From a virus (lineage: Duplodnaviria > Caudoviricetes), in the IMG/VR virus record IMGVR_UViG_3300034108_000283, positions 51,897-115,896 of that record: 64,000 nt of DNA, one strand, 5' to 3'. Numbering within the stretch: the stretch's first letter is position 1; each line of letters opens with the position of its first letter. The notes beneath the pieces are model-generated. The model was not told the origin of the DNA. It saw only the letters and a program-made list of their open reading frames with translations, and did not search any database. Positions 1,663-18,111 of this stretch are shown in pieces. A program made the position numbers and the translations under genes.

Positions 1663-2091
1663 TTAAAATTCTTCCATGATCTCTAATGTATCAGCCATTA
1701 GGTAACTACTAAATGTCTGTTGTGTGCTTTGTGAATCAATACCAAGAGACTCAACTTCATAATGTTTCCAATCATGAAAGCCTCTAAATTCCTTGATAGT
1801 GCAAGCAATCATACCATTATTGTCAGATAAATCAGACTCTATTGTTTTAGGTTTGTTTATCTCATAGCTTAAATTGTTGACATGAGTAAGACATATAGTA
1901 CCTACAGGAATTATATCCGGTAACTTTCTACCTAGTATTAGTTTAAACAACCATTTAGTACAATCTGAACTACTACCAATAAATGGAGTCAATAACTTAG
2001 TTATCTCTTCTGCATTTGGATGATTAATCATTGATTTGAGAGTATTATACAAATCTGTTTCATCAAACTCTAGGTGTATTTTTGTGCTCAT
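1663..2091 (-). CDS. Hypothetical protein
   Basis: 142-aa ORF in a tightly packed operon. Confidence 0.7.
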   Translation of the reverse strand: MSTKIHLEFDETDLYNTLKSMINHPNAEEITKLLTPFIGSSSDCTKWLFKLILGRKLPDIIPVGTICLTHVNNLSYEINKPKTIESDLSDNNGMIACTIKEFRGFHDWKHYEVESLGIDSQSTQQTFSSYLMADTLEIMEEF

Positions 2092-2093
2092 AA

Positions 2094-2312
2094 CTAGTCA
2101 TTTATTCTTCTGAAGTCTCTTATTTTAGCTATAAGAGCTTCATTGTAGTGAGTAAAGAAACTTTTGTCTACAATCCGGTAGTTTATTCTTTCCATCATAG
2201 TTACCGGATAAATAGTTTTCTTAATTCCAATAGGTATTAACTGATCTGATTCATCTTTAATATCAGCCTTAAGATTAAATCCAAGTACTGAAGTAATTAG
2301 TTCTCTATCCAT
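2094..2312 (-). CDS. Hypothetical protein
   Basis: 72-aa ORF overlapping or abutting its neighbours. Confidence 0.65.
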   Translation of the reverse strand: MDRELITSVLGFNLKADIKDESDQLIPIGIKKTIYPVTMMERINYRIVDKSFFTHYNEALIAKIRDFRRIND

Positions 2313-2931: not shown

Positions 2932-3186
2932 TTATAATAAATACTTAACTGTCATAGCATAGCCAAATAGACCGGTAGCTGCACCACAAAATGCTATTAA
3001 TGTTACTGTCATAGCATTAATTGTATTGTTCTGCATTAACTTGTCTAATTGTTCTTCTATAACTACTATCTGATACTCTGCTTCTGATAGCATTTGATAC
3101 TTTAAATCTGTCGGAACATCACTTAGTTGAACTTCATCTCTAAGGTTGTTCCAAAAATCTAGCTTTTCCTGTAGCTCTTTAATCAT
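2932..3186 (-). CDS. Coiled-coil protein with C-terminal TM anchor
   Basis: Heptad-like N-terminus and hydrophobic C-terminus. Confidence 0.65.
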   Translation of the reverse strand: MIKELQEKLDFWNNLRDEVQLSDVPTDLKYQMLSEAEYQIVVIEEQLDKLMQNNTINAMTVTLIAFCGAATGLFGYAMTVKYLL

Positions 3187-4496: not shown

Positions 4497-4901
4497 TTAT
4501 ATCCCAATTTCCTCAGATACCTCAACCTCCTCAAAGTCATCATCAGAATTCTCAGAAGCAACAACAAGGCTTGATAATGTGTACCAAGGTTTACGCGCAG
4601 TTCCATCAGCATTCTTGCTTCTAGAAACTTTACCTAAGTAGGTTTCCCCTACCTCCATACCTTGCTCATAGCTAGTACTATACACTACTATATCAGCTTT
4701 GGTGTGGCTGTTACCATTATCATCAGTAAACCTGATAGTTGCTAACTTGTAGGTTAGGGTATCCCCGTTACCATTAGTGTAAGTGAACTCTTTATCACTT
4801 AATCTAACCAAGGTAGCCTTAATGTTGGCAACCTTTTGCACATTACCACTAGGTGTTGTTTCTTCCTTAAACACCAACGCAATCTTTTTCTTTTCAATCA
4901 T
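4497..4901 (-). CDS. OB-fold-like protein with acidic tail (possible second SSB)
   Basis: Beta-strand pattern; tail SENSDDDFEEVEVSEEIGI. Confidence 0.5.
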   Translation of the reverse strand: MIEKKKIALVFKEETTPSGNVQKVANIKATLVRLSDKEFTYTNGNGDTLTYKLATIRFTDDNGNSHTKADIVVYSTSYEQGMEVGETYLGKVSRSKNADGTARKPWYTLSSLVVASENSDDDFEEVEVSEEIGI

Positions 4902-7723: not shown

Positions 7724-7906
7724 TTATTCCCCTGTATTACTTTCCATTGCTGATACAGCAGCTTCAATACCTTCTTGAACATAAGCTCTATATGCTTTTA
7801 AATCAGATAGCTCATATAGTTCTTTAAATGTCTTACCTTCTGTTTCTAAGGTAGCAATTGCTTTATCTAGCGTTTCAGCTAAATCAAATAGTTGGTTTGC
7901 AGTCAT
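7724..7906 (-). CDS. Early cassette helical protein (first gene of the array)
   Basis: Start revised to MTANQLF, just after the promoter motif at 7925. Confidence 0.7.
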   Translation of the reverse strand: MTANQLFDLAETLDKAIATLETEGKTFKELYELSDLKAYRAYVQEGIEAAVSAMESNTGE

Positions 7907-8237
7907 AGTTATTAGTTTCTCATACAATAGAAGTTGTGCTATATACTGTCTTCTCTGTGTGTGTGGTTGTGCTGTTGGCTCGGTTGTCTCAGCACCCTCC
8001 CCCCTCTGTGTCATAGTCTTCTGCTCAGCTTTTGCATCTGTTGTCTCTGCTCTGTTCTGTCTCTGCTAGCATCCACACACTTTTCCTGTGTCAGAGTTTT
8101 TTAGATTTTTTCCTAGATTCAGGCTTGCTCCCTCAGCTTCATAGGGGGTATGCCACTTTTTCTCAGAGCCCCGGGGGTTTTTGCTATATGCCCCATCTCA
8201 CACTCTTATATAGTACAACTTAATTATCTTAAAAAAA

Positions 8238-8268
8238 TTTGGTATGTTTAGAATTATGTATATATTTG
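8238..8268 (+). promoter_or_regulatory. Bacteroidota sigma70-type promoter (-33 TTTG / -7 TATATTTG)
   Basis: TTTG at 8238 and TATATTTG at 8261. The same -7 box occurs at 8354, 9451, 9547, 10862, 21826 and as TACATTTG at 47339, all intergenic. Confidence 0.7.
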
Positions 8269-8269
8269 T

Positions 8270-8335
8270 TGAGCTAATAACTTTCATTTTAGGATTAATA
8301 CTAAGAGCCCCGGAACTACAGTCTGGGGTTTTTTT
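8270..8335 (+). ncRNA. Candidate small RNA 1
   Basis: Promoter, about 35 nt with no ORF, then a GC hairpin and U-tract. Confidence 0.5.
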
Positions 8336-8365
8336 ATTATATTATATATTATATATATTTGTATT

Positions 8366-8809
8366 ATGAAAAAGTATGACATGGGTAAGTATGTGCTCCT
8401 TGCCGGAGAAGATGCTACCAAGATATTTGACTACTATGATGTAGATGAGATGCACGGGTTGAACCGTAAAGATGCTCAGGCAGAAGAAGTAGATAAGACT
8501 GTAGGCAACGGGGTGTATATGTATGGGTGGACTAACTATGACCCTAATGATAAGAAGCTTACAACAAAAGCTCCACACAAACCATTCTTGTTTATTAACC
8601 TAGGTACATTTAAGAAGTACTCTATTACAGAGAAAGCTACCGCAGTTATGCATGAGACTATGCACATGAGTATCTTACTTAATAACTGGAACATCAAGGA
8701 TAAAGAAGAAGAGGTTATTGGTTTTGCTGAAGAACAAGCTAACAAGATTATTGATATACTAGGGTTTGATAAGAAGGAGCAGCCTAAGAAAGGGTTCTTC
8801 AAAAAATAA
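8366..8809 (+). CDS. Zincin-like metallopeptidase domain protein
   Basis: HExxH motif (MHETMH) with downstream EEE. Confidence 0.65.
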   Translation: MKKYDMGKYVLLAGEDATKIFDYYDVDEMHGLNRKDAQAEEVDKTVGNGVYMYGWTNYDPNDKKLTTKAPHKPFLFINLGTFKKYSITEKATAVMHETMHMSILLNNWNIKDKEEEVIGFAEEQANKIIDILGFDKKEQPKKGFFKK

Positions 8810-8812
8810 CAT

Positions 8813-9445
8813 ATGGCATATATAGAACATAACTTCTTTCCTCTCAAGGTATTTGTTAGGAATGAGTACATGTACCAACACCAAAAAGGTTTAGGAGAAT
8901 TTACCCCGGGGGTAATAGTATCAGTTAGATGTATGCCGGGACAAGCTGCATTGTTCCAGGTACTACTTGAGAATGGTGTACTTAGAGATAAGTTACCTAG
9001 TCATGCTTTACTTACTGAACCAAAACTTCCAGATCCAGATCTACCATTTCATTATCTACAGATATGGAATTGCTTCTCATATAGATTTACTTTACTACAT
9101 CTATCATATGTATATGATACTAAAGTAGAAGTGTATATGAAGGACCATAAGTTTCACCCGGGTAGTTACTATGCTACTATTAACTGGGGAGCTAATGATT
9201 TTAATACAGACCTGTCTCTAGCTGAAGATGCACTAGAGCATAAGAGTCACCATATCATATTATTAGATAATGGACAGATAGCATTGCAACCAAACAACAG
9301 AATCAAATGGTCAGAACCTAGCTTTGTTACTAAGCCTTTTCCAGAGAGACCGGATTATTTAGTTAATAAAGATTACTATAATTGTGAGGGATTTGACAAG
9401 TGGCATACAGAAGATTCTGAAAGAATGTTTTATGATAATGAATAA
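8813..9445 (+). CDS. Conserved hypothetical phage protein
   Basis: 210-aa ORF (VRNEYMY, LQIWNCFS, EHKSHH, QPNNRI) resembling a family common in aquatic phages. Confidence 0.75.
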   Translation: MAYIEHNFFPLKVFVRNEYMYQHQKGLGEFTPGVIVSVRCMPGQAALFQVLLENGVLRDKLPSHALLTEPKLPDPDLPFHYLQIWNCFSYRFTLLHLSYVYDTKVEVYMKDHKFHPGSYYATINWGANDFNTDLSLAEDALEHKSHHIILLDNGQIALQPNNRIKWSEPSFVTKPFPERPDYLVNKDYYNCEGFDKWHTEDSERMFYDNE

Positions 9446-9460
9446 TGTTGTATATTTGTA

Positions 9461-9525
9461 CAGTTCATAACATAACTTTTAATTGATTTAGCTGAAAGCC
9501 CTGGAAATTTTTTTCTGGGGTTTTT
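9461..9525 (+). ncRNA. Candidate small RNA 2
   Basis: TATATTTG promoter at 9451, a stem-loop, then a terminator; no ORF. Confidence 0.55.
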
Positions 9526-9603
9526 AGTTTAAATTAAAATAGTTTATATATTTGTGTCACCAACAAACCATGAGAGCAATAACTCCTAATTATTTATTTG
9601 ACT

Positions 9604-9912
9604 ATGACTGCCCAGCAAAAGCTGTTGTGGGAAAAGCTAACTAAAGAAGTTAGAGATGCCGGCATGGACAATCTCCGTGCCCGGGAGCTCTATGATGAAC
9701 TAAGTAAATTATTAAATATGTCAGATAAAACATTGATATCTATTACAGAAAAAGAATCAGGACTAGAAGTTAGGATTCATGAAGAAGCATATGGTAATCT
9801 AGCTCTTATAGGTTTATTAGAAAAGATCAAGTTGAATATTTTAGATTCTCTTCCTGATGATAAAGAACTAGAAGAATCTAAAGCAACAACCAAGCAGAAA
9901 TATGATGCATAA
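9604..9912 (+). CDS. Hypothetical protein
   Basis: ORF after the promoter at 9547; start uncertain (9604 or 9718). Confidence 0.6.
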   Translation: MTAQQKLLWEKLTKEVRDAGMDNLRARELYDELSKLLNMSDKTLISITEKESGLEVRIHEEAYGNLALIGLLEKIKLNILDSLPDDKELEESKATTKQKYDA

Positions 9913-9929
9913 TTTTTAAAACCAACAAT

Positions 9930-10214
9930 ATGTCAGAAGAAACAGTTTACCCAACACCTGGTAATATACAGGCTAATGAAACTAAGATAACTCCATTTGG
10001 ATATAAAATCTTAGGTATCAAAGAAGATGCGGAAGATACATCAGATGTTTATAAAGTAAAAGTATTAGCAGCAGAGATTGCTGAGATTATGAAGAAGAAC
10101 TATGAAGCAGAAAGGGTACCCTTAAAGAGTCTCCTGTTTGATCACGCAGTAGGAGAAATTCTTAATGCATCTATGTCAGTAGTAAAAGTATTAACATTTA
10201 AAAATGAGGAATGA
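9930..10214 (+). CDS. Acb2/Tad1-like helical-hairpin protein (candidate nucleotide-signal sponge)
   Basis: FGxKxxGI...VxKVKxLxAEI...AVGEIxNAxMxVVKVLT pattern and 94-aa size resemble Acb2/Tad1-type hairpin proteins. Confidence 0.45.
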   Translation: MSEETVYPTPGNIQANETKITPFGYKILGIKEDAEDTSDVYKVKVLAAEIAEIMKKNYEAERVPLKSLLFDHAVGEILNASMSVVKVLTFKNEE

Positions 10215-10504
10215 GTAATTTTAAAAAACTAAGAGGCCGAGCTATATTGCTTAATGTGCCACAGAGAAAGAAGTCAGTTATTGAACTGTCTGCAAAAGAT
10301 GAAGAAGCTATGATGCAAGAAGCAGCTAAACTTTGGAGCAAACTTGCTGTATATGCTATAGGAGATAAAGTAGAAGAAGTAGCTGTAGGTGATGAAGTGT
10401 ATGTAAGAACAGGATCTCTAAACATGGAGACTGTTGAGAGAATAGAAATTGATGGTGAGATTAAACTTCTCCTTACTGAAGGTGATGTTGTTATAATCTG
10501 GTAG
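10211..10504 (+). CDS. GroES-like co-chaperonin
   Basis: LRGRAILL...VYAIGDKVEEVAVGDEVYV...IEIDGEIKLLLTEGDVV; 97 aa. Confidence 0.75.
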   Translation: MSNFKKLRGRAILLNVPQRKKSVIELSAKDEEAMMQEAAKLWSKLAVYAIGDKVEEVAVGDEVYVRTGSLNMETVERIEIDGEIKLLLTEGDVVIIW

Positions 10505-10506
10505 TC

Positions 10507-10851
10507 ATGGATAAAAAGAAAACTCCGGTATCTCCTTATCCCGGCATGGCAGATGGAGTTATTGGTAGAAATACTAGCACTGTTACTTCCACTTTTGGAC
10601 CTGGAAAAGATCTTACTGATAGAATAGTAAAACTATCTCCGGGACCAAGACCTGTATACTATGGTGGACAATCTAATCCTTATGAAGTATTTCAAGTACT
10701 TGAAGCTTGGGGTCTGGATAGAGACTTCTATTTAGGCAATGTCATTAAATATGTAGTAAGAGCTGGTAAAAAGAATCCGGGAGCATACAAAGAGGATCTG
10801 GAAAAAGCTATAGTATATCTCCAAAAGAGAATAGAAAGTTTGGATAAATAA
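10507..10851 (+). CDS. DUF3310 / T7 gp1.7-like nucleotide kinase family protein
   Basis: PxYY...FYLGNVIKYVVRAGKK...EDLEKAIVYL signature. Confidence 0.8.
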   Translation: MDKKKTPVSPYPGMADGVIGRNTSTVTSTFGPGKDLTDRIVKLSPGPRPVYYGGQSNPYEVFQVLEAWGLDRDFYLGNVIKYVVRAGKKNPGAYKEDLEKAIVYLQKRIESLDK

Positions 10852-10874
10852 ATATTCTTTCTATATTTGTCTAC

Positions 10875-11069
10875 ATGAAAGCTATTTTAGTAATATTGCT
10901 GATAGGTGTAATTGGAGTATGTTGGATAGTTGCCAATGCTTTTAATAAACCTGTACTTAATAAAATGAAAAACTATTATGAAGATGATATAGAAGGTAGA
11001 CAGATTGCTAATGCTTTAATAGGTGTTATGATTCTGCTGTCTTTTCTTATCGGATATATTGTTGCTTAA
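10875..11069 (+). CDS. Small two-TM membrane protein
   Basis: Two hydrophobic helices; own promoter. Confidence 0.7.
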   Translation: MKAILVILLIGVIGVCWIVANAFNKPVLNKMKNYYEDDIEGRQIANALIGVMILLSFLIGYIVA

Positions 11070-11119
11070 CAACCTGTTATCTCCTTTTGCGCTAATCTTG
11101 TTAACCTGTTAAGCAACTT

Positions 11120-11149
11120 AATCCTCAGTTTTTTAACTGGGGATTTTTT
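11120..11149 (+). terminator. Intrinsic terminator
   Basis: AATCCTCAGTT...AACTGGGATT followed by a T-tract. Confidence 0.7.
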
Positions 11150-11163
11150 TATATCAAATATTT

Positions 11164-11174
11164 TTTGTATATTA
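11164..11174 (+). promoter_or_regulatory. Late-gene motif TTWGTATATTA
   Basis: Also at 18074, 29904, 33801, 40189, 45001, 47363 and 58710, all upstream of structural or lysis genes. Confidence 0.65.
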
Positions 11175-11201
11175 TAGTGTATATTTATAAAAACAATAAT
11201 C

Positions 11202-12176
11202 ATGGATATTTTAAATTTCATTTCTTGGATAAGAGGACGCAGACAAGTAACATCTGTTGATCCGGCTAAATCTCTATTACCAGTTGGTCTTAAGGACGGT
11301 AGAAGAGATGATGAATACTTAGCAGGTGCTATATCAGTAGAAGACTTTACAGCTCAAGTAGCTTCTGTAATTCCATCAGGTGCCCAAGGACCAATAGGCC
11401 CACAGGGTGTACCAGGACCAGTAGGTCCAGCAGGATTAAACTGGCAAGGTGCATGGTCTGCAGCAGGTACATATGTAGTTGATGATGCTGTAGGATATGG
11501 TGGAGCATCTTGGTTTTGTATTGCTAACGTAGGACCTTCAGCAACTACACCTAACTTAGATCCAACTAAATGGGCACTATTAGCATCACAAGGAGCTACA
11601 GGACCCCAAGGACCTCAAGGTATTCAAGGAATACAAGGACCATCAGGATCAGGATTGCCAGGAACAGTAATAAGTCAAACACAGTGGTGGACAGGTGCTT
11701 CATGGGCACCATCTACAGGATTAAGCCATAATGGATTGGGTAATGTTGGTATTAATAACACACCAGCATTAACTTATAAATTATTCATTAATGCTAATAC
11801 AGGATTTGGTCAAACCATAAGAAATACAACAGTTAATGGAGGTATAACAAATCAATTACAAACAGCTACTGCAACTGTCAACTGGGGTTTAAATAATTCT
11901 ACTCATCCCTTTCCTAATTCATTTTTTTTGGCAAGAGCAGATGCATCAGTAATGAAGTTTATGACAAGTAATGTTGATAGACTTATTATTCAAGGTAACG
12001 GTCAAGTAACAATAGGACAATCATTAGCAACAAACACTGATGCAAATTTTGTAGTTAAAAACAATGACATAGAAGTTGAAGAAATAGGTAAAGGTGTTAT
12101 ATTATCTTCTCCTAATGGCACAAGATATAGAATAACTGTATCAGATCTTGGTGTATTAAGTACAACTGCTGTATAA
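11202..12176 (+). CDS. Collagen-repeat fibre protein (MDILN family, paralog 1)
   Basis: G-x-y repeats, a WQGAW..Y..DD.V.YGG.SW module, and a fibre-like C-terminus (SPNGTRYRITV). Confidence 0.8.
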   Translation: MDILNFISWIRGRRQVTSVDPAKSLLPVGLKDGRRDDEYLAGAISVEDFTAQVASVIPSGAQGPIGPQGVPGPVGPAGLNWQGAWSAAGTYVVDDAVGYGGASWFCIANVGPSATTPNLDPTKWALLASQGATGPQGPQGIQGIQGPSGSGLPGTVISQTQWWTGASWAPSTGLSHNGLGNVGINNTPALTYKLFINANTGFGQTIRNTTVNGGITNQLQTATATVNWGLNNSTHPFPNSFFLARADASVMKFMTSNVDRLIIQGNGQVTIGQSLATNTDANFVVKNNDIEVEEIGKGVILSSPNGTRYRITVSDLGVLSTTAV

Positions 12177-18038: not shown

Positions 18039-18111
18039 AAATACCTAGTAACCTATTGTAGTTTCAATTATTTTTAGTATATTATAAGTATATATTTATA
18101 ACATAATAACA

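Follow-up and report, generated by a model that had tools for sequence, protein, structure and literature searches.

Two short transcripts of phage lambda, OOP and the PR'-tR' 6S RNA, are each set by a constitutive promoter and a nearby terminator; OOP is a cis-antisense RNA to cII, and the 6S transcript precedes antitermination-dependent genes. In Bacteroides thetaiotaomicron, the available part of the report on GibS describes a small RNA whose single-stranded 5' seed pairs with start regions (PMC7366714), and FopS RNAs, in the portion of their description at hand, repress translation of SusC-like transporters (PMC11697453). PeSLs of T4-type phages, according to the accessible sections of two reports, combine a conserved promoter with a stem-loop at module boundaries and occur in flanked and single forms (PMC2839356; PMC4122927). 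For the crAss-like phage phi14:2, the available part of a preprint (10.1101/2020.03.07.982082) gives the DFDGD motif as a mark of the crAss-like virion RNA polymerase and states that the virion enzyme reads the early genes and the host RNA polymerase the middle and late genes; no common early motif is reported in that part. A literature search returned no small regulatory RNA or gene-less cassette of crAss-like or other Bacteroidota phages, the nearest case being the intergenic transcripts of phi14:2.

The window analyzed here is a stretch of 64,000 nucleotides, corresponding to bases 51897-115896 of a source record of 115,896 bp with about 33% GC, and a search for sequencing runs containing it gave 24 DNA runs from lake water and no RNA run. 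Judged from its genes, the phage is a distant crAss-like phage of Bacteroidota; its terminase matches among deposited phages were only crAss-like, Flavobacterium and Cellulophaga phages, at 23-25% identity. A 4207-aa ORF outside the window (G000:C1:10446-23069), which has DFDGD at residue 2532 and no PHROG match, probably encodes the virion RNA polymerase of a crAss-like phage. A blastn search of positions 8000-11000 against 50,697 cultured-phage records gave a single unrelated 115-nt match and nothing else. The minus-strand genes up to window position 8014 are small and unannotated, with DNA polymerase, primase and DnaB-like helicase genes further on, and the plus-strand genes from 8366 on include those for terminase, portal and major head protein. 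Two gene-less cassettes, starting at 8261 and 9451, stand at the head of this strand with the terminase, portal and capsid genes.

Several other signals were observed in the same part of the genome. The strand-switch region (7960-8200) has an odd C/T-rich composition, the cumulative GC skew turns there, and a CCCCGGGGG palindrome followed by a T-run lies inside it at about 8160-8180. Between 4497 and 7691 on the minus strand, 11 small genes each have their own terminator and a common upstream motif, laid out as CAACTTTTATTG, 11-13 nt, and then TATATAnT abutting the ATG, which looks like a phage-specific class of early promoters that would give leaderless mRNAs. A third promoter-like motif (GTATATTATA, 3-4 nt, GTATATTTATAA) was detected at 11150-11201 and 18060-18111, upstream of genes 11202 and 18112; related GTATATTATATAGTAC motifs occur upstream of small genes in relatives and also at window position 8207.

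The unit at 9451-9525 directly follows a plus-strand gene at 8813-9445 (phrog_3704; TAA stop at 9443-9445). Its parts, the elements downstream and the paralogous cassette are as follows.

9451..9458, plus strand: P1, a sigma-A -7 box (TATATTTG) of the Bacteroidota TAnnTTTG type, 5 nt after the TAA stop
9463..9525, plus strand: predicted 63-nt non-coding transcript, with its start placed 5 nt past the G of the box and its end in the U-tract
9465..9472, plus strand: conserved island 1 (TCATAACA), at the 5' end of the RNA, with low divergence
9473..9480, plus strand: hypervariable patch, which includes the CTTTT named as 'seed' in the original prediction; high divergence among 12 close relatives
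9481..9488, plus strand: conserved island 2 (AATTGATT), part of a 13-nt complement to the start region of a 388-aa gene
9494..9525, plus strand: intrinsic terminator, a hairpin and U-tract (fold -16.2 kcal/mol)
9547..9554, plus strand: P2, a second TATATTTG box and putative promoter of the downstream gene, from box match and conservation
9559..9603, plus strand: conserved 5' leader (45 nt) of the downstream gene, with an upstream ATG at 9570
9604..9912, plus strand: downstream gene (102 aa), without a family match, with which the cassette travels
8261..8335, plus strand: paralogous gene-less cassette with a TATATTTG box, a body of about 35 nt and a terminator at 8303-8333
8354..8361, plus strand: second TATATTTG box after the paralogous cassette, 4 nt before the ATG at 8366; predicted leaderless mRNA

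The locus had been described from its letters as a stand-alone, ORF-less transcription unit with a host-type promoter at 9451 and an intrinsic terminator, and this part of the description holds. The TATATTTG box at 9451-9458 fits TAnnTTTG, no ORF of at least 30 aa overlaps 9446-9551 on either strand, and the terminator is a 14-bp hairpin (9494-9507/9512-9525) with a U-tract, as good as which was none of 200 shuffles; the paralog and the conserved homologs in relatives lend further support. In Flavobacterium psychrophilum, the sigma-A -7 box lies at -12..-5, as given in the available part of the report (PMC9723704), so that the RNA is predicted to start near G9463. The same box position, applied to the TATATTTG boxes in 8354-8368 and 10862-10877, which end 4-5 nt before an ATG, predicts leaderless mRNAs there. 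When folded, the predicted 63-nt RNA leaves its 5' 31 nt unpaired ahead of the 14-bp terminator hairpin, and the AU-rich body of about 33 nt has a minimum free energy (MFE) of 0 kcal/mol on its own.

Other readings of the unit were considered and set aside. Peptide readings (a minus-strand 12-codon mini-ORF and a plus-strand reading) were dropped, the body having no ATG on the plus strand. A cis-antisense role finds no counterpart, as no minus-strand ORF of at least 30 aa lies over 9446-9551 and the neighbouring genes are all on the plus strand. Rfam gave no match at gathering thresholds in the whole window, and in a permissive scan of 7900-11300 the family scoring highest on the unit was Spot_42 (18.2 bits, threshold 80, E=3.6); a PsrR1 match on a relative's cassette, below threshold (31 vs 42 bits), was judged a terminator artefact. 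The resemblance of ATAACTTTTAATTG in the body to the early-promoter-like motif CAACTTTTATTG is not kept in relatives. Downstream of the unit, the upstream ATG at 9570 opens a 24-codon frame overlapping the start of gene 9604, and ATGAGAGCAAC of the 9559-9644 region recurs in distant relatives.

Conservation differs strongly among the parts. In 25 distinct cassettes, the box reads TATATTTG in 22, TACATTTG in two and TATCTTTG in one, and only the two free positions of TAnnTTTG vary. Pairwise identity of each part, calculated for 300 pairs of the 25 units and binned by identity of the downstream protein, had these values:

Downstream protein 90-100% identical (23 pairs): P1 0.99, body 0.83, terminator 0.94, spacer plus P2 1.00, leader 0.96, 4-fold sites 0.87
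Downstream protein 80-90% identical (13 pairs): P1 1.00, body 0.79, terminator 0.91, spacer plus P2 0.97, leader 0.92, 4-fold sites 0.84

P1 ranges from 0.97 to 1.0 and the block of terminator and P2 from 0.89 to 1.00, and the leader of gene 9604 reaches 0.92-0.96 vs 0.84-0.87 at 4-fold sites, whereas the body on average changes no more slowly than these sites (0.83 vs 0.87; 0.79 vs 0.84). A sliding profile of mean pairwise difference among 12 close relatives separates variable patches at 9459-9464 (0.52) and 9473-9480 (0.44-0.58, exceeding the adjacent coding sequence) from kept islands at 9465-9472 (0.11) and 9481-9488 (0.17), which are about as conserved as coding sequence, and positions 9512-9575 are nearly invariant. 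TTCATA of island 1 occurs in most of 22 variants and TTRATTGATT of island 2 in most variants; both islands are missing from the L025 group and L117, and island 2 is near-palindromic in several relatives (TTAATTGATTAA). The terminator stem is preserved in relatives despite substitutions (CCCTGG/CTGGGG, CCCTGG/CCGGGG, CCCTAG/CTAGGG). Taken together, the part-wise identities and the profile suggest that the transcription signals are constrained and most of the body is not, and a -7 box that is so strictly kept in front of a terminator about 60 nt away speaks for selection on the transcription of this short stretch.

The distribution of the unit was examined from both flanking genes. The best 80 of 441 IMG/VR relatives were taken via the upstream gene; in 23 of these contigs a homologous unit follows directly after the stop codon, and in L056, L059 and L062 an unrelated box-to-terminator unit is found after the stop of the upstream gene. 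Among 28 contigs found via the downstream gene, a unit of the same family (family A) is present in 20, a unit of another family in four, a single box in two and another ORF in between in two; family-A homologs persist even where the downstream proteins are only 46-50% identical. At least four different upstream genes abut the cassette, with similarity ending at the stop codon before P1, which, together with the 20 of 28 contigs, indicates that the unit travels with its downstream gene. L016, L116 and L126 have a single promoter joined straight to the same leader, that is, no cassette, and L111 and L112 have a 120-aa ORF after a family-A cassette. Of four lake metagenome runs compared, three have contigs whose similarity to the window ends at 9446, and one contig rejoins the window at 9490 with another body variant.

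Similar units recur within genomes. Each of the seven whole or partial records scanned has between one and three orphan promoter-terminator units, which are 67-80 nt long and in most cases have a second box behind them; tandem units occur in some relatives (L034, L046/L079 and G008), and differing body families fill the same kind of slot. In the whole genome of the lake phage, only two plus-strand units and one minus-strand unit have a box and a terminator at a distance of 25-110 nt within non-coding DNA. The plus-strand paralog at 8261 has ATAACTTT and the type of terminator in common with the 9451 unit, and L001 and G006 have kept it. The minus-strand unit (G000:C1:46348-46432, outside the window), of which G006 has an exact copy, is 80 nt long with a TACATTTG box and has no second box after it; in the loop of its terminator lies TATGAACT, which is complementary over 8 nt to the 5' end of the 9463 RNA, possibly by chance. 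A different conserved non-coding stretch of about 240 nt, running from box to terminator upstream of the gene-8366 homolog (L096, about 1880-2110, minus strand; also L078, L046 and L079), contains no ORF, matches no Rfam family significantly and may represent a longer structured RNA.

The original prediction went beyond a transcription unit: an RNA with its loop between CAGTT (9461-9465) and AGCTG (9490-9494) was proposed to pair with the starts of the early genes 2932-3186, 4497-4901 and 652-1116 and to block their translation at the early-to-late switch. The hairpin is missing from MFE and centroid folds, RNAalifold on 22 variants recovers the terminator only, and the first two bases of the stem lie upstream of the predicted RNA start (about 9463); CAGTT/AGCTG pairs in 60.6% of cells vs 57.8% in shuffles, 52 of 500 shuffles being as high. 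The recurrences of the loop sequence, on the other hand, are real: CATAACTTTTA at 3184, CATAACTTTT at 4899 and CATAACTTT at 1114 are matches of 9-11 nt, each across the ATG of a minus-strand ORF. Two of the resulting duplexes (-15.4 and -14.7 kcal/mol) rank first and second of 134 start regions, and six of the 134 genes, all on the minus strand, have a GTTATGA start context complementary to island 1.

The matches do not exceed what shuffled sequences give. In all pairing tests, ORFs were called naively from ATG starts, duplex energies took no account of accessibility, and the targets covered were those of phages. With the body set against 134 start regions (-25..+15) and 300 dinucleotide shuffles, the best duplex in the window genome was -17.0 vs -15.7±2.0 in shuffles (p=0.24), the top-five mean had p=0.30, and there were six matches of at least 9 nt vs 2.9±2.3 (p=0.16) and three of at least 10 nt vs 0.84 (p=0.07). 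Only the longest exact match (13 nt, p=0.017) stood out, at a site not among the three that had been named. When seven records were tested, each with its own RNA and 100 shuffles, the best-duplex p values were 0.45, 0.17, 0.72, 0.56, 0.59, 0.53 and 0.34, chance level in all seven, and one of 28 statistics fell below 0.05, again the 13-mer. In 71 ortholog groups present in at least five of the seven records, the best mean rank was 0.13 vs a null minimum of 0.162±0.04, a value equalled by 25% of 40 shuffles.

Comparison with relatives points in the same direction. Among 12 close relatives, no patch of the unit varies more than the proposed seed (9473-9480), which should belong to a conserved loop. 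G006 has all three named start regions unchanged from the window (40/40) but an RNA with a different seed, so that the predicted duplexes of -15.4 and -14.7 kcal/mol both fall to -8.9 kcal/mol; the duplex with the third target, the 652-1116 gene, has -9.6 (G000), -9.7 (G006) and -12.7 (G008) kcal/mol. In G001, the ortholog of the 3184 site and the RNA have both changed without compensation, and thus no covariation of loop and target was seen in either G006 or G001; gene 4497-4901 has no match in G001-G005. Pairing of the unit's RNA with phage early-gene starts is therefore at chance level and is not kept in close relatives. Two further pairing candidates were rejected. Pairing with the unit's own downstream leader showed no preference (on average -8.7 kcal/mol for own and -8.5 for other pairs; permutation p=0.29), and in the window the RNA pairs with its own leader more weakly (-5.4) than shuffles do; the idea that the unit family mirrors the start of the 652-1116 gene family came from 8-9-nt matches in G001 and G003, and the ortholog is not among the best-ranked groups.

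The 13-nt exact complement joins window positions 9477-9489, including island 2, to G000:C1:28561-28585 outside the window, where it covers the bases 10-22 nt ahead of the start of a 388-aa gene that neighbours the DNA polymerase gene. Six of six records retain the site, but it lies inside the coding end of the polymerase; RNA and site still pair in G000, G005 and G008 but no longer in G006, G007 and G009. This complement may be regarded as an unproven lead.

The explanation that we tentatively prefer, at somewhat less than even probability, is that 9451-9525 is a small regulatory RNA gene of the GibS/FopS architectural type, whose target may be a host gene and not the early-gene starts proposed before. 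The unit probably makes a 63-base RNA, its production and start being read from promoter and terminator signals, and we infer that this RNA acts in trans. Directed by the TATATTTG box, host RNA polymerase with sigma-A would begin transcription at about 9463 and end it at the intrinsic terminator, releasing an RNA of about 63 nt with a single-stranded AU-rich first 31 nt and the terminator hairpin as its 3' half. The predicted RNA would work through the open 5' part, most plausibly the two conserved 8-nt islands, and the cassette would be one of a family of interchangeable promoter-body-terminator units, placed shortly before a second host-type promoter where the late-gene strand begins. An open 5' part with a terminator is the build of GibS, and this, with the apparently selected transcription, favours a small regulatory RNA. 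The perfect -7 box and strong terminator without an ORF, the restriction of box changes in 25 cassettes to two degenerate positions, the kept terminator stem, the retention of homologs, the recurrence in seven of seven records, the paralog at 8261 and the two islands kept about like coding sequence all agree with this reading, as does the high transcription of intergenic non-coding RNAs in crAss-like phi14:2 described in the available part of the preprint (10.1101/2020.03.07.982082). However, the body on average drifts like 4-fold sites, in contrast to the highly conserved GibS seed; pairing with phage start regions is at chance in all seven records (best-duplex p 0.17-0.72), with no consistently well-ranked ortholog group and no preference for the own downstream leader; and the cassette is dispensable, as L016, L116 and L126 manage with one promoter joined to the leader. 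Conserved signals around a free body would also be expected of a purely transcriptional punctuation element.

Such an element is the main rival, although we consider it on the unlikely side. In this PeSL-like scheme, the terminator and P2 would stop upstream transcription and restart it for the next gene, the repeated boxes would offer homology for recombination that swaps gene modules, and the P1 RNA would be a by-product, or the P1-terminator slot an 'empty' cassette. The best conserved stretch, above coding sequence, is indeed terminator-spacer-P2, with a body in roughly neutral drift, and the boundaries described above fit a mosaic: at least four upstream genes abut the cassette with similarity stopping at the stop codon before P1, three of four lake runs diverge from the window after 9446 with one contig rejoining at 9490, and different body families occupy the same kind of slot. 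The replacement of P1-body-terminator-P2 by a single promoter in L016, L116 and L126 gives present and absent forms that match the flanked-vs-single PeSL topology of RB49/phi1, as far as the accessible sections describe it (PMC2839356; PMC4122927). Against this, P1 fires into a terminator about 60 nt away and yet varies only at the free positions, as a working box does; a useless promoter would be expected to decay like the body, and the kept P1 thus counts against pure punctuation. The narrow unit length (67-80 nt in seven records) and the two conserved islands are likewise not explained by it, and PeSLs flank ORFs, whereas no ORF is present here.

Within the preferred small-RNA reading, an extension that seems improbable holds that the cassettes of lake crAss-like phages form a swappable, fast-diversifying repertoire transcribed by host RNA polymerase at the head of the late strand, with the hypervariable patch between the islands as a specificity element that tracks host targets or defences, the RNA serving as a decoy or silencer in an arms race; it would explain faster-than-synonymous change within a strictly conserved expression frame. 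It is decidedly improbable, by analogy with lambda PR'-tR', that the unit is a promoter-proximal terminated leader for antitermination of the late strand, in which the P1 polymerase would stop unless modified by a phage factor and the islands would be factor or pause sites. Both cassettes do head the terminase/portal/capsid strand with the islands within the first 30 transcribed nt, and in L025, L038, L039 and L040 a box and a terminator-like hairpin precede the gene-8366 homolog with no second box between, so that this gene would need read-through; in most cases, however, a second consensus promoter within 25 nt removes the need for read-through, no gene for an antiterminator was identified, and the islands are missing in the L025 group and L117. 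An element acting at the DNA level, for example a pair of operators downstream of P1 or a replication origin primed by transcription beside the strand switch, is very improbable: the cassettes flank the divergence point of the gene blocks where the cumulative GC skew turns, island 2 is near-palindromic in several relatives and the body is constrained only in short patches, but no repeated binding sites, iterons or regulator were found, the skew turns just where the coding strand changes, and the cassette is missing from some relatives. The weakest explanation is the early-gene shut-off of the original prediction, which is extremely improbable since, in spite of genuine matches over start codons, pairing equals shuffles, the stem-loop is unsupported, the seed patch is hypervariable, and pairing is lost in G006 with its targets unchanged and altered without compensation in G001.

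If the cassettes make functional RNAs, they would form a class of phage regulators that is compact and easy to recognise, in a phylum with little-known RNA biology; if they serve only for punctuation and shuffling, the PeSL idea, drawn from T4-type phages, would also cover an unrelated lineage with another promoter type. In both cases, complements of 9-11 nt to AU-rich starts in such genomes need shuffled and comparative controls before targets are called; in scans for host targets or CRISPR-repeat mimicry, by a rough estimate, AT-rich patterns as short as these would match by chance hundreds of times.

With regard to the known systems, the lake-phage unit differs from OOP in having no gene on the opposite strand and from the lambda 6S transcript in being followed by a second promoter. 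Like phi14:2, which infects a flavobacterial host, it is a probable case of intergenic non-coding transcription units in a crAss-like phage, although in the available part of that preprint (10.1101/2020.03.07.982082) these are long non-coding RNAs from two long intergenic regions, so that the two are likened by description and not by sequence. With the PeSLs, as portrayed in the accessible sections, it has in common a composite host-type promoter and terminator stem-loop, an intergenic position, better conservation than the surroundings, a place at the boundary of gene-module swaps, insertions and deletions, and the occurrence of flanked and single forms among relatives; recombination at the boxes of the lake-phage unit is suggested by the mosaic boundaries. 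The host promoter type and phage lineage are different, and two boxes enclose a 33-nt ORF-less body instead of an ORFan, which makes a short RNA the predicted product. Unlike GibS and FopS, the unit is phage-borne, much shorter (about 63 nt) as a predicted RNA and gave no target among the phage gene starts, its 5' part has only two conserved 8-nt islands, and there is no sequence similarity (no Rfam match). GibS and FopS, in the available parts of their descriptions, target the regions where translation is initiated, in a phylum that lacks Shine-Dalgarno sequences, and it is with these RNAs that the unit shares its own sigma-A-type start, an intrinsic terminator, an intergenic location, low GC content and a long single-stranded 5' part.
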